A stretch of DNA of 64,000 nt from positions 1 to 64,000 of the forward strand of contig OZ220744.1 of the NCBI GenBank assembly GCA_965116925.1, read 5' to 3'. The stretch is from Candidatus Poribacteria bacterium (GTDB lineage: Bacteria; Poribacteria; WGA-4E; PCPOR2b). Below, piece by piece: positions 1 to 4,092 of the stretch (position 1 is the stretch's first letter; each line of letters opens with the position of its first letter). Both the position numbers and the translations under genes were made by a program. Below the pieces are notes generated by a model. The model was not told the origin of the DNA. It did no database searches and worked only from the letters and a program-made list of their open reading frames with translations.

Positions 1-1479
1 GATGCGTGGGACGATGGGACAATGCATCAACCAACGACCGGGGTTAGGCCACTCACTCCGGGGCACCGCCCTGATGATTATCGGATTGCTCAAACCCTAC
101 AGCTTCCAATCACATCGGTTATTGATGACGCCGGACGTTTGACGGAGGATTCCGAGCAGTTTTGTGGCCTTGAAGTTTCCGACGCCGGAAAATTCATTGC
201 CTTTGAATTGGAAAAACGGGGTTACCTAATATCCGCAGAATCTAAGGAGATGCATCAGCCTCACTGTTCGCGGTGTGATATGCCAGTCCTGTTTCGTTCC
301 GTTCAACAATGGGTCTTTTCCTTAGACAGCAATCAATTGAGGGAGCGGGTACTTTGTTCAGATGAACATTTGGCGTACTATGATCCTAAAGATAAAGATT
401 GGATACAACAAACGATTCAAGAGCTACCGCCTCCAACGGTTTCACGTCACAGAGGCTGGGGGACTCCGATACCTCTTTTTCAATGCCAAAAATGTGGACG
501 GGAACTTTCTGACGCTCGAATTGTCAAATCCATCCGTACTCTGGTGAGTCGTCGCGGTGCTGATAGTTGGTTTAAGTTGAATGCGGAGGATCTGTTGCCC
601 CCAAACACCCTATGTCCTAGCTGTGATGGAAAGGAATTTCGGAAAGAATTCACTACCCTTGATGGACGCTTTGCAGTTCTTCTCAACGCAATTAACAATC
701 TTGGTGCCAAGGGAAATGACATTAATTCAGTTAATGTCTACTTTTTTTACCCGAATCAATTTCATAAGTGGTTCGCTCAGTTCGTTTTGACTTCAGCTGC
801 TATCTCCGATGTGGAGCCGTTGAATGTGGATTTGACAGGAGATCGTTCAAATGTCCAATCGGTTGATGTCAACCCAAGCTGGATGGAGGAATATCCAAAG
901 GATGTGCTGCGTTTGTTCTGCATCCAACCCAATTTGGACCCGTCATCAATCGAGGTGCATCTCCAACAGTGTCAACAAGAATACAGTGCCATTCAAGATC
1001 TCTGTGCCACGATATTAGGTCATCTTGAAGGTTTTACCCGTGATCCGGATGAAACCCAGCTCGAACTAATGATGCCGGATACACAGGAGTTATCCACCAC
1101 TGCTAGCGTGCTGCAATCTGTAGATTTCGCCTACCAGCAACGCGACTATTATCAAGCGTGGTGTCTTTTGAGAAACTTTTGCCAATCAGATCTTCAACAG
1201 TTCGTCGATGATTGGTTCAATGCGTCGGAACCAGTACTGGAAAAAAGATCTTGCCAAACAATGCTATTAGGGATTTTGTATGTCTTGGTACAGCGATTTG
1301 CACCAATCATTCCTTTTTTTTCCGAACAAATCTACGCTTCAATCCGAATATGGGTGGATACTGATTCGCCTTCGGATGACACCCGAAGCGAAGATGAGCC
1401 CGAATTGTCGAGCATCTTTTTGAAAAATTGGACTTCCCATGCTAATTTTCCTTACTGTGCTGATGCAGATGTGCATTAA
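1..1479 (+). CDS. ileS: Isoleucyl-tRNA synthetase-like protein, degenerate paralog (5' end lies outside the window)
   Basis: Frame is open from base 1. It is colinear with IleRS: PGHxxDDY, PHCSRC, QW, RxRGWGTPIP, CxxC pairs, GADSWF, FRKE, DVLRL, APIIPFFSEQIY. It lies directly upstream of lspA. Catalytic motifs are altered and KMSKS is absent. Confidence 0.8.
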   Translation, partial: DAWDDGTMHQPTTGVRPLTPGHRPDDYRIAQTLQLPITSVIDDAGRLTEDSEQFCGLEVSDAGKFIAFELEKRGYLISAESKEMHQPHCSRCDMPVLFRSVQQWVFSLDSNQLRERVLCSDEHLAYYDPKDKDWIQQTIQELPPPTVSRHRGWGTPIPLFQCQKCGRELSDARIVKSIRTLVSRRGADSWFKLNAEDLLPPNTLCPSCDGKEFRKEFTTLDGRFAVLLNAINNLGAKGNDINSVNVYFFYPNQFHKWFAQFVLTSAAISDVEPLNVDLTGDRSNVQSVDVNPSWMEEYPKDVLRLFCIQPNLDPSSIEVHLQQCQQEYSAIQDLCATILGHLEGFTRDPDETQLELMMPDTQELSTTASVLQSVDFAYQQRDYYQAWCLLRNFCQSDLQQFVDDWFNASEPVLEKRSCQTMLLGILYVLVQRFAPIIPFFSEQIYASIRIWVDTDSPSDDTRSEDEPELSSIFLKNWTSHANFPYCADADVH

Positions 1480-1508: not shown

Positions 1509-2009
1509 ATGCAGAGAAACATACTAAAATTAATTTTACCTATATTTGGTATTACGTTGCCTGTGTTATTACTGGATCAATTCACTAAGTGGTTGATTCA
1601 ACAACATATTCCGCGTCACGGTCAACATGTGATAATTCCGGGGATACTCAATCTACGCCATGACACAAATGACGGTGCTGCGTTTGGGCTGATGCCGGGG
1701 CAAAGTGTACTGCTAGTTATCATCTCAATTGTTGCGATTGGCTTCATTGGCTACTACTACAGACAATTCCGCGAGAGCTTGTGGATGAAAATTGCGCTCA
1801 GTTTTCTGCTTGGGGGTGCACTTGGTAACTTTATAGACCGTGTTCGCTTGGGGGAAGTCACAGATTTTATTCAATTTCGACTGCCCGGTTTCTGGTGGCC
1901 TACTTTCAACGTTGCCGATGTCGCCGTTTGTATCGGTGCCGGGATGTTAATGATTTACCTATTTCAGCATCGAGGAGACTACGATGAAGCGAAACAGATC
2001 GAAAATTAG
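1509..2009 (+). CDS. lspA: Lipoprotein signal peptidase II
   Basis: DQFTK, NDGAAFG, GGALGNFIDR, VTDFI and FNVAD motifs; hydrophobic helices; AGGA-type SD upstream. Confidence 0.96.
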   Translation: MQRNILKLILPIFGITLPVLLLDQFTKWLIQQHIPRHGQHVIIPGILNLRHDTNDGAAFGLMPGQSVLLVIISIVAIGFIGYYYRQFRESLWMKIALSFLLGGALGNFIDRVRLGEVTDFIQFRLPGFWWPTFNVADVAVCIGAGMLMIYLFQHRGDYDEAKQIEN

Positions 2010-2484
2010 GTTGCTTATCATGCTGATGTTAACCGTGATAATTGCGACTCATGCGCTTGCCCAACTTCAGGAAAATCCGGAAGAAGAAGCATCGTCCGCC
2101 CGTCAGCAGGAAGAGGAGGATTACCATGAAAGCACATTACGTCGTTTTGAAATTGTTACGATCATTGCGCTGCCGTTTACAGCGATTCATAGCTATGTAG
2201 GTGTACGGGGTATCCAAATGATTCGACAAAACGAGTTCGCACCGGAACTCTCCACGACAGATTTCAAAGTTATCGGGGCATCTGCGGTGTCGCTCGCGCT
2301 CCTTATCGGTTTCTGGGATTGGCTGCATACGCATGACAAAAATCCTTCAGAAGAATTGATTCCTACTTCGCCACAACCTATAACTCCTCCACGCCGAGCC
2401 CCAATCCAACGTGTCGGGCAGAACGATTGGAACCCCGATGAGCCGCAGGGATTTGTTGTACCGTTCGTTCACATTCGGTTTTGA
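1984..2484 (+). CDS. Hypothetical exported/membrane protein
   Basis: Signal peptide (…THALA), two hydrophobic segments, C-terminal Phe; GGAG SD upstream; overlaps the end of lspA. Confidence 0.7.
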   Translation: MKRNRSKIRLLIMLMLTVIIATHALAQLQENPEEEASSARQQEEEDYHESTLRRFEIVTIIALPFTAIHSYVGVRGIQMIRQNEFAPELSTTDFKVIGASAVSLALLIGFWDWLHTHDKNPSEELIPTSPQPITPPRRAPIQRVGQNDWNPDEPQGFVVPFVHIRF

Positions 2485-2549
2485 TGGGCTTACGCCCCAG
2501 ATTATTTTTGACTTATCGATTCACTTTTTTACATGTCACGTTTCATATT

Positions 2550-3089
2550 ATGGCTGTTTTAGAAATCCAAACCAACGATGCTGTTATCTTACGGCAAAAG
2601 GCTGCTCCTGTCCAAGAAATTAATCCAGATTTACATCCGTTTGTCGAAAATATGTTTGAGACGATGTACGAGGCGCAAGGGATTGGTCTGGCAGCACCAC
2701 AGGTCGGTGTGTCCAAAAGAATCGTCGTCATTGACATCGAAGAACACCAACCGGAGTACCCACGGATTGCGTTGATTAATCCCGTCATTACAATGACCCT
2801 CGGTGAAGAACTGGGCGAAGAAGGCTGCCTAAGTTTGCCCGGGGTACGGGGAATGGTTCGGCGGGCAGCGATTGTGAAGGTAGAAGGACTGCTGCCGAAT
2901 GGGGATAAAATTGAGTTTGACGCTAGCAATCTGATGGCAAGAGTTTTGCAACATGAAATTGACCACCTGAACGGGATTCTGTTTACCGATCTGCTGCGTC
3001 CCGAAGATCAAGAACTGCTTGAACCTCGACCGGAACCATCTGAAAAAAGCGGTGATGAAAATGAAGATTCTCTTCATGGGAACAAGTGA
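2550..3089 (+). CDS. def: Peptide deformylase
   Basis: GIGLAAPQVG, EGCLS and QHEIDHLNG motifs. Start reassigned to the ATG at 2550 (MAVLEI). Confidence 0.96.
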   Translation: MAVLEIQTNDAVILRQKAAPVQEINPDLHPFVENMFETMYEAQGIGLAAPQVGVSKRIVVIDIEEHQPEYPRIALINPVITMTLGEELGEEGCLSLPGVRGMVRRAAIVKVEGLLPNGDKIEFDASNLMARVLQHEIDHLNGILFTDLLRPEDQELLEPRPEPSEKSGDENEDSLHGNK

Positions 3090-4092
3090 GTTTGCGGTTC
3101 CGAGTTTAGAAAAATTGATTGCGGAGGGGTTTGAACTCGTTGGGGTTGTAACACAGCCAGACCGTCCAAGCGGTAGAGGAAAACGGCTTACTCCACCTCC
3201 CATCAAGGTTGTCGCCGCGACTCACAATCTCCCGATTTATCAGCCGGAGCGGGTTCGGCACCGTGAATCTGTTCGTGTGCTTCGAGAACTTCAACCCGAT
3301 GTGATCGTTGTCGTTGCTTTCGGTCAGATTCTTCCGAAATCGGTGCTAGACCAGCCGCCCTATGGCTGTATTAATGTGCATCCTTCGTGCCTCCCAAAAT
3401 ATCGGGGTGCTGCCCCGATTCAATGGGCGCTCATTAACGGCGAGACGGAAACAGGGGTCACAATTATGCTGCTAGATGAAGGAGAAGATACGGGGGATAT
3501 TATTCTGCAAAGCAGTTTGCCCATTGATATTTTGGATGATGCGACTACCCTTTCAGTCCGATTGGCAAATTTGGCACCTTCCCTGTTAATTCAAGCGTTA
3601 GGGCGTATCTCGGATGGTCCGCCACCACATCACCCCCAAGATCATTCCCAAGCAACCCACGCGCCTCGACTCATCAAGGAGATGGGTGTAATTGATTGGA
3701 AGCAGCCGGCAGATCAGATTCGTAATCTGGTGCGTGGCGTTTCGATGTGGCCCGGCGCATATACATGGGTAAAAGCGGACGAGTATCCTACAGATGATGA
3801 CCTCCGCTTAAAAATAACTGCTTGTGCTGTTGTCGACCATCTGAATTCCGCAGAACTTCCTATCGGTACAATTGAGGTTACGTCTAACAAAGAACTCATT
3901 GTCTGTACCGGGACGGGCAGCCCGGATAGAGTCGAAACGGAAAATGATCGCTACGGATTGGGAGGCAGACACTTACGACTAGATCGTGTCCAACCCGCGA
4001 ACAAGAAGGAAATGGACGCTAGTGCCTTTATAAATGGGTATCGGTTAAAAACAGGAGATCAGCTTTTTCGTAAGGAAACGCCAATAGATTAA
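3061..4092 (+). CDS. fmt: Methionyl-tRNA formyltransferase
   Basis: MKILFMGT, VVTQPDRPSGRG, INVHPSCLPKYRGAAPIQW and DTGDI motifs; follows def. Confidence 0.96.
   Translation: MKILFMGTSEFAVPSLEKLIAEGFELVGVVTQPDRPSGRGKRLTPPPIKVVAATHNLPIYQPERVRHRESVRVLRELQPDVIVVVAFGQILPKSVLDQPPYGCINVHPSCLPKYRGAAPIQWALINGETETGVTIMLLDEGEDTGDIILQSSLPIDILDDATTLSVRLANLAPSLLIQALGRISDGPPPHHPQDHSQATHAPRLIKEMGVIDWKQPADQIRNLVRGVSMWPGAYTWVKADEYPTDDDLRLKITACAVVDHLNSAELPIGTIEVTSNKELIVCTGTGSPDRVETENDRYGLGGRHLRLDRVQPANKKEMDASAFINGYRLKTGDQLFRKETPID

Follow-up and report, generated by a model that had tools for sequence, protein, structure and literature searches.

We analysed a 64,000-nucleotide stretch of DNA from Candidatus Poribacteria bacterium (assembly GCA_965116925.1, contig OZ220744.1; genome G000), which forms the first 64 kb of a single contig of 6,471,377 bases. 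This whole stretch is referred to as the window, and nucleotide coordinates are window positions unless a contig or locus handle is given. At its very start, on the + strand, lies the 3' part of a gene resembling isoleucyl-tRNA synthetase (IleRS). The open reading frame (ORF) spans positions 1..1479 in frame +1, is open at its 5' end from base 1, and consists of 492 codons plus a stop codon at 1477-1479. An initial annotation of this piece had described a synthetase paralog with lost aminoacylation motifs in the ileS-lspA position, and lspA is indeed present just downstream (1509-2009). The same annotation had reported at least 492 uninterrupted codons colinear with IleRS. In agreement with this, the ORF matched Pfam tRNA-synt_1 (PF00133, 40 bits) and Anticodon_1 (PF08264, 37 bits) above the gathering scores, and its best NCBIfam match was the ileS model TIGR00392 over model positions 325-791, with 158.5 bits against a cut-off of 621.4. 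A full-length, 95%-identical ortholog from genome G005 matched PF00133 with 114.6 bits and PF08264 with 34.4 bits, which places it in the class I aminoacyl-tRNA synthetase superfamily. On TIGR00392 it reached 278.9 bits, again below the cut-off for an equivalog.

In a whole-genome family search, the match to IleRS model positions 11-303 fell at the extreme end of the contig that holds the window. There, outside the window, a 294-codon ORF holding the 5' part of the gene runs off the end (G000:C1:6470495-6471376 = L004:4118-4999). Both halves are colinear with the IleRS model, indicating that the gene runs through the point at which a circular contig was linearised. A single leftover base at the contig end puts the two halves out of frame as assembled. 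The G005 ortholog reads ...PDISE-QR-DAWDDG... across this point and has five extra bases (AACGC) exactly at the G000 break. Because the frame break falls at the linearisation point, 1 position in 6.47 million, the 5-nucleotide shortfall of G000 is probably an artefact of end trimming during assembly. The initial description of an intact pseudo-enzyme fits the orthologs; the G000 assembly does not demonstrate it across the contig junction. DNA contigs of runs X1 and X2 extended 112 letters beyond window position 1. Gene callers are expected to emit two partial proteins for such a junction gene, and the protein collection contained no 100%-identical match to the full protein of G000. Metagenome pattern scans returned 0 matches for the first 32 bases of the window and 2 unrelated matches for the first 20 bases. 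A perfect palindrome, ATTCAGAATTTCTGAAT, was also observed at L004:4065-4090 (G000:C1:6470442-6470467), in the 58 nucleotides that separate yggT from the IleRS-like gene.

The state of the catalytic motifs was read from two alignments, one of the G005 ortholog with a solved IleRS1 structure (8c9e) and one made with MAFFT that included canonical IleRS sequences. The ortholog (P0121, 788 residues) aligned with Priestia megaterium IleRS1 8c9e over residues 24-771 (E = 6e-63), and the IleRS2 structure 8c9d matched it far more weakly (2e-29). With the 5' part recovered, the HIGH, WDxHG and Thr-rich editing motifs were all found to be lost: HMGH (the HIGH motif) reads KLDM in both G000 and G005, PGWDxHGLP reads PHWDYYTxA, and the editing peptide WTTTPWT in CP1 reads WLQDLWY. 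The editing His is also gone, VH being replaced by RP. In the window, all on the + strand, DWCISRQRxWG is changed to PPTVSRHRGWG (430..462, with DWCISRQR replaced by PPTVSRHR at 430-453), (M)DVWFDSG to LDGRFAVL (658..681), and EGSDQxRGWF, the Ile/adenylate pocket strand, to FYPNQFHKWF (745..774). Both alignments thus reproduced the substitutions first noted for DWCISRQR, DVWFDSG and EGSDQHRGWF. The KMSKS loop, which had been reported missing at about 805-890, survives as a remnant at 820..870 on the + strand that is about nine residues shorter and carries no motif (LTGDRSNVQS).

Other elements were retained on the + strand, including the CxxC pairs and the PGHxxDD Asp that the initial annotation had listed as remaining. 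The editing-domain remnant PGHRPDDY lies at 58..81. HCSRC (262..276) is the second Cys pair of the first zinc cluster, whose partner WCPKC is in the 5' half, and the second zinc cluster (484..624) is formed by CQKC (484-495) and CPSC (613-624). The helical fold of the anticodon-binding domain (Anticodon_1) occupies 892..1476 and ends without the IleRS1 C-terminal zinc-binding domain. No match to PF06827, the model of that domain, was found in the protein, which stops after Anticodon_1, as had been noted from the window; canonical IleRS1 proteins among the database matches do carry PF06827. The statement that the anticodon-domain helices remain held for the fold and failed for the RNTxRF and KDxLY positions, which are lost.

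These losses extend through the family. We designated the families of the phylum f1 to f9, with genera marked g. All catalytic motifs were lost in 19/19 aligned paralogs of f1, f2 and f4 and in the G000 halves, and also in 10/10 further paralog rows from f5-f9, which extend the sample to other orders and classes, wherever the rows cover the motif. HIGH was missing in all 29 paralog rows covering that position. As a baseline for conservation, we used 45 IleRS1 representatives with complete motifs, selected the 130 columns in which their conservation reaches 90% or more, and scored these columns in 26 paralogs. The results showed that 31 of these columns were kept and 83 were lost, the lost ones including isoleucine/adenylate contacts, twelve CP1 positions and the C-terminal Cys. 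Three positions were re-fixed to another residue and 13 were newly conserved and family-specific, among them FPxSxGLEEFG, where CP1 begins, and a number of residues near the second zinc cluster. Across 20 family members, 60 columns were invariant; the eight zinc-binding Cys counted among them are invariant or nearly so, and all four of the second cluster are invariant. Pocket residues varied between families (WD, WN, WE or WQ), and DQ was kept only in g1. One f8 copy (943 residues) retains WIGTPWT and a longer C-terminus.

The initial annotation had offered a trans-editing deacylase as one possible role, in which CP1 would still hydrolyse mischarged Val-tRNA-Ile or another ester in trans. CP1 is retained under constraint (a ratio of nonsynonymous to synonymous substitution rates, dN/dS, of about 0.2), the PGH His does not vary across the family, most f1 copies still have the editing Asp, and the FPxSxGLEEFG stretch is conserved specifically in this family. 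Against this, WTTTPWT is replaced by WLQDLWY or similar in 19/19 paralogs (f1, f2, f4), the editing His has disappeared, f2 (LSY) as well as G041, G045 and G046 no longer have the Asp, and the twelve canonical CP1 positions are gone. The working IleRS2 of the genome also retains its own complete editing motifs. We consider a trans-editing activity very unlikely.

A working IleRS had been predicted elsewhere in the genome, and the whole-genome family search found it outside the window at G000:C1:822371-825730 (= L005:2372-5731). This protein is of the IleRS2 type, has 1119 residues and the type-2 C-terminal domain DUF5915, and scored 694 bits on TIGR00392, above the cut-off of 621.4. Its editing motifs are intact, and GVHH stands where HIGH would be expected and EMHKS where KMSKS would. 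The same search of the G000 genome returned no further IleRS-level match. GVHH was present in all five Poribacterial IleRS2 sequences aligned. According to the available part of Brkic et al., GXHH is a natural variant that makes IleRS2 hyper-resistant to mupirocin, natural IleRS1 never departs from HXGH, and GXHH mutants of IleRS1 yield no product.

Two long forms of IleRS2 were observed within one order (relatives G025-G040 and G000-G024). The first has about 1050-1100 residues, scores about 968 bits on TIGR00392 and carries KMSKS (f2, f4, f3-g8); the second has about 1122-1173 residues, scores about 690 bits and carries EMHKS (f1, f3-g10). The two forms are sister clades in the tree described below. 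In genus g1 (L046-L057), the synonymous divergence (dS) of IleRS2 was out of step with that of the IleRS1-like gene and lspA. Between G000 and G005, dS was 0.44 for IleRS2, compared with 0.125 for the IleRS1-like gene and 0.136 for lspA, and between G000 and G022 it was 0.67 for IleRS2 against 1.52. Possible causes of this mismatch are a constraint on codon usage or, within the family, recombination or transfer of ileS2.

We next assessed how widely the IleRS1-like gene is kept. Of 41 related genomes, 35 contained a match to the window protein in one uninterrupted frame of 735-896 codons; by group, such frames were present in 19/19 for g1, 23/24 for f1, 6/6 for f2, 5/5 for f4 and 0/5 for f3. 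Sampling across the phylum, 137/151 genomes matched a profile built from 20 members at E <= 1e-40, and two of the 137 copies were fragments at contig edges. By family, matches were found in f1 (21/25), f2 (100/100), f4 (4/4), f5 (5/5), f6 (2/2), f7 (1/1), f8 (2/2) and f9 (1/1), with none in f3 (0/10). These kin genomes are not independent samples. The profile was specific, with cross-matches to IleRS2 of at most 165 bits and family members at 218 bits or more. Open frames of 730-1011 codons persist in families down to 23-30% identity.

Selection on the gene was estimated with a Nei-Gojobori script, a simple pairwise method. In 12 pairs with G000, the dN/dS of the IleRS1-like gene was 0.15-0.21 (about 0.19), with bootstrap 95% upper bounds below 0.31; in the same 12 pairs it was 0.035-0.063 (about 0.05) for the working IleRS, and for lspA it was 0.06-0.125. 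Pairs inside f2 and f4 gave 0.13-0.19, some of them saturated. Every long domain remained below 0.35, with 0.07-0.30 for the N-terminal half of the Rossmann fold, 0.19-0.25 for CP1, 0.12-0.19 for the C-terminal half of the Rossmann fold and 0.20-0.33 for the anticodon domain; the 65-codon KMSKS remnant was the only noisy segment. In more distant pairs the Rossmann N-half was the most constrained region, at 0.07-0.13 in 5/8 pairs, and the three closest pairs gave 0.23-0.30.

These values bear directly on the possibility that the gene is a decaying pseudogene, a functionless remnant that is open by chance or was recently inactivated. Such a remnant would account for the loss of every catalytic motif, for a dN/dS about four times that of the working IleRS, for the clean deletion in two lineages described below and for the broken frame in the G000 assembly. 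It is contradicted by open frames of 730-1011 codons in families that diverged to 23-30% identity, by dN/dS values of 0.13-0.23 with bounded upper limits, and by 60 columns held invariant; the position of the frame break, exactly at the linearisation point, points to an assembly artefact. The initial annotation had named decay in orthologs or the lack of a second ileS as observations that would count against it. Instead, the orthologs were free of frameshifts, dN/dS was about 0.19 in every domain, and a second ileS was present. On the sequence evidence, then, the gene is not a decaying pseudogene, an explanation to which we give almost no weight.

Downstream of the IleRS1-like gene, all on the + strand, we identified lspA (1509..2009), encoding signal peptidase II (Peptidase_A8, 2.7e-43), after a gap of 30 nucleotides; a 166-residue membrane-like ORF, TM166 (1984-2484), which has an N-terminal hydrophobic segment and no Pfam match and overlaps lspA on one side and def on the other; def (2481-3089); and a gene at 3019-4092 that we take to be fmt from sequence features and synteny. 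These genes belong to a conserved operon, and across the phylum the slot reads proC-yggT-X-lspA-TM166-(def)-fmt, where X is the IleRS1-like gene. lspA was directly downstream in 21/22 loci and proC upstream in 21/22, and the TM166 ORF was kept at this position in 19/22 loci across the phylum. Rfam searches at E <= 0.1 detected neither a leader nor a riboswitch at either contig end. Promoter and terminator scans gave counts at or below the shuffle expectation, with no terminator-like site on the + strand between the IleRS1-like gene and lspA.

In family f3 and genus g5 (0/4) the gene is missing. In five of these gene-less genomes the operon reads proC-yggT-lspA-TM166-def-fmt, and tblastn searches of the five with either half of the gene found no trace at E <= 0.01. 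The simplest history is that the gene was cleanly deleted at least twice, in the f3 and g5 lineages. These genomes also bear on a role in cis, in which the reading frame would matter only for the expression of lspA-def-fmt through translational coupling or internal signals. The tight spacing, the lack of a terminator-like site before lspA and the phylum-wide conservation of the adjacency are what such a role would lead one to expect. Yet the constraint acts at the amino-acid level along all 788 codons, the gene-less lineages keep proC-yggT-lspA-def-fmt intact, and promoter-like sites are at chance level, so that a role limited to cis effects is highly improbable.

To place the family, we built a tree of 50 rows with a quick IQ-TREE search (LG+G4) and valyl-tRNA synthetase as the outgroup. 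The results showed that 16/16 Poribacterial paralogs together with two metagenome proteins formed one clade, with a support of 100 in the Shimodaira-Hasegawa-like approximate likelihood ratio test (SH-aLRT). This clade was nested in the IleRS1 group (SH-aLRT 98), apart from the Poribacterial IleRS2 clade (100); its deeper placement is unsure, owing to long branches and flagged compositional heterogeneity. Compared with the IleRS1 enzymes of Priestia megaterium (8c9e) and S. aureus (1ffy), the Poribacterial protein has the same domain order, about 750 colinear residues, the slot before lspA, the CP-domain zinc clusters and the same tree group. It differs from them in lacking HIGH, WDxHG, the editing Thr-rich peptide and His, DWCISRQR, DVWFDSG, DQxRGWF, KMSKS and the C-terminal zinc-binding domain. 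It has the placement and colinearity of IleRS1, and neither the score nor the motifs of the IleRS enzyme family. We class it by sequence as an IleRS1-derived pseudo-synthetase: its descent puts it in the class I superfamily and in the IleRS1 lineage, and by function it falls outside the IleRS enzyme family. When a library of 1.84 billion proteins was searched with the family profile, the top 14 of the 148 best representatives (503-1172 bits) all lacked the motifs; the family also has lower-scoring members in this library, such as P0136.

As far as sequence comparison can establish, descent from IleRS1, the loss of all catalytic signatures, purifying selection and a single ancient origin are shown for this gene. 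We consider it probable that it encodes a preserved, non-catalytic IleRS1-derived protein that is under purifying selection and works by binding something, while IleRS2 does the charging. In this proposal, the ancestral bacterial-type IleRS1 of Poribacteria would have stayed in its ancestral proC-yggT-ileS-lspA slot while IleRS2 functionally displaced it, and catalysis would have been lost before the phylum radiated. The inactive gene would then have been retained and later deleted at least twice, and tRNA-Ile would be charged by the separate IleRS2-type enzyme. The protein has lost the activation site for ATP and isoleucine (HIGH, WDxHG, DQxRGWF, KMSKS), along with the editing site and the motifs of the transfer site, and would be capable of neither aminoacylation nor proofreading; in this taxonomic order the C-terminal zinc-binding domain is gone in addition. 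Since a full-length copy is kept under purifying selection despite the lost catalysis, it presumably acts through binding, as a full-length, folded, zinc-binding multidomain protein. What selection appears to preserve is mainly the fold and the zinc sites, the pattern expected of a protein with a binding or scaffolding role.

Several results weigh against this interpretation or against parts of it. The gene is dispensable in f3 and g5, the G000 copy is out of frame as assembled, and two contigs from RNA libraries that span nucleotides 1-2100 (runs X5 and X6; 9-10 kb, 98.8% identical) may be DNA carry-over. With only 13 family-specific conserved positions, no new site indicates a function. The anticodon domain has the highest dN/dS of all domains and has lost its RNTxRF and KDxLY positions, both of which speak against canonical tRNA binding, and the g1 protein is strongly acidic (isoelectric point 4.7, net charge -45). 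The loss of anticodon reading, with the C-terminal domain gone, and the acidity of the g1 protein weaken a canonical mode of tRNA binding.

Regarding the partner, 5/5 f2 copies (L026-L030), unlike those of f1 and f4, carry a basic extension of 35-55 residues at the N-terminus that is rich in Lys, Ser and Thr. Appendages of this kind are RNA-binding in eukaryotic synthetases, and by analogy this tail suggests RNA binding. Net charge and isoelectric point gave no discrimination between the paralog and the working IleRS, and ESM Atlas returned only generic class I synthetase clusters (0.93-0.94). A partner that is RNA or tRNA, bound non-catalytically by the retained synthetase body, is slightly favoured and still doubtful; a protein partner is about as likely.

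A remodelled pocket with another catalytic activity was also considered, either an atypical synthetase or an aminoacyl-tRNA-dependent transferase of the SbzA kind. SbzA, a homologue of IleRS, uses Ile-tRNA as the donor in the transfer of Ile onto altemicidin (Hu et al. 2019, PMC6331615, as described in the available part of that paper), which shows that IleRS homologues can be recruited for such transfer, and the Rossmann N-half of the Poribacterial protein is its most constrained region in more distant pairs. Like SbzA, the Poribacterial protein would be an IleRS-derived paralog with a role outside translation. SbzA itself, compared here by description only, keeps near-intact, slightly changed HIGH and KMSKS motifs, is closest to Thermus (type 2) IleRS, charges tRNA weakly and is encoded in a biosynthetic gene cluster (PMC6331615, same excerpt); in the Poribacterial protein the motifs are absent, the sequence is IleRS1-like and the context is a housekeeping operon. 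Moreover, a ligand site common to the families is not evident, given that their pocket residues vary; this argues against aminoacylation and trans-editing as well as against an SbzA-like transferase, and the three re-fixed and 13 newly conserved positions form no obvious catalytic set. Another catalytic activity is therefore improbable in our judgement, and we retain a non-catalytic binding protein as the preferred reading.

Among other duplicated synthetases, HisZ serves a known partner as its regulatory subunit. The Poribacterial protein resembles HisZ and LeuRS-I of Sulfolobaceae in being a duplicated synthetase kept beyond standard charging, and it differs from LeuRS-I, which still makes leucyl-adenylate (PMC9437257, available part). 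The known IleRS paralogs with other roles named in the available parts of PMC9437257 and PMC6331615 are mupirocin-resistance enzymes and SbzA. In the accessible portion of Zanki et al. (2022), bacteria are described as using ileS1 or ileS2, and Bacillaceae keep both, active and with complementary roles. Poribacteria likewise have both types in one genome; unlike in that Bacillaceae pair, the Poribacterial IleRS1 copy appears catalytically dead and IleRS2 would be the sole synthetase. The literature searched contained nothing linking Poribacteria with IleRS and nothing describing such a dead IleRS1. In the databases, these proteins are labelled 'isoleucyl-tRNA synthetase' or 'class I tRNA ligase family protein [Candidatus Poribacteria bacterium]'.

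Across the phylum, an IleRS1 with its catalytic signatures erased is kept under purifying selection beside an IleRS2 of the GVHH, mupirocin-hyper-resistant type. This contrasts with the view of the field, as far as the accessible parts of the cited papers give it, that each bacterium except Bacilli has one ileS type and that IleRS1 is intolerant of changes in HIGH. With two clean losses and more than 130 genomes, the family offers a natural and well-sampled example of what a 90-kDa synthetase body can serve for after catalysis is gone, and it helps to date gene displacement among synthetases. The misleading annotation could distort metabolic reconstructions and marker-gene phylogenies. More broadly, we tentatively entertain the possibility that a single conversion at the base of the Poribacteria turned the displaced IleRS1 into a protein that lacks catalysis and fulfils a new role under selection. 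This role would most plausibly be RNA or tRNA binding or that of an adaptor in translation or envelope-protein maturation, and the protein would then have persisted throughout the history of the phylum, with other phyla hinting that this fate is recurrent. If displaced IleRS1 did repeatedly meet this fate, 'dead IleRS1' would be a recurrent class of bacterial pseudo-synthetases.

Lower in the ranking of the library search with the family profile, eight further IleRS1-like proteins of 900-980 residues from other phyla (P0141, P0146, P0154, P0155, P0163, P0164, P0182 and P0206) were observed to lack HIGH and/or KMSKS. They keep pocket motifs (GWDxHG, DQxRGWF) and the C-terminal zinc finger. Some of these motif-poor proteins come from metagenome-assembled genomes of Bacillota and Armatimonadota and fall in separate clades, and they may represent IleRS1 enzymes that were disabled or repurposed independently.

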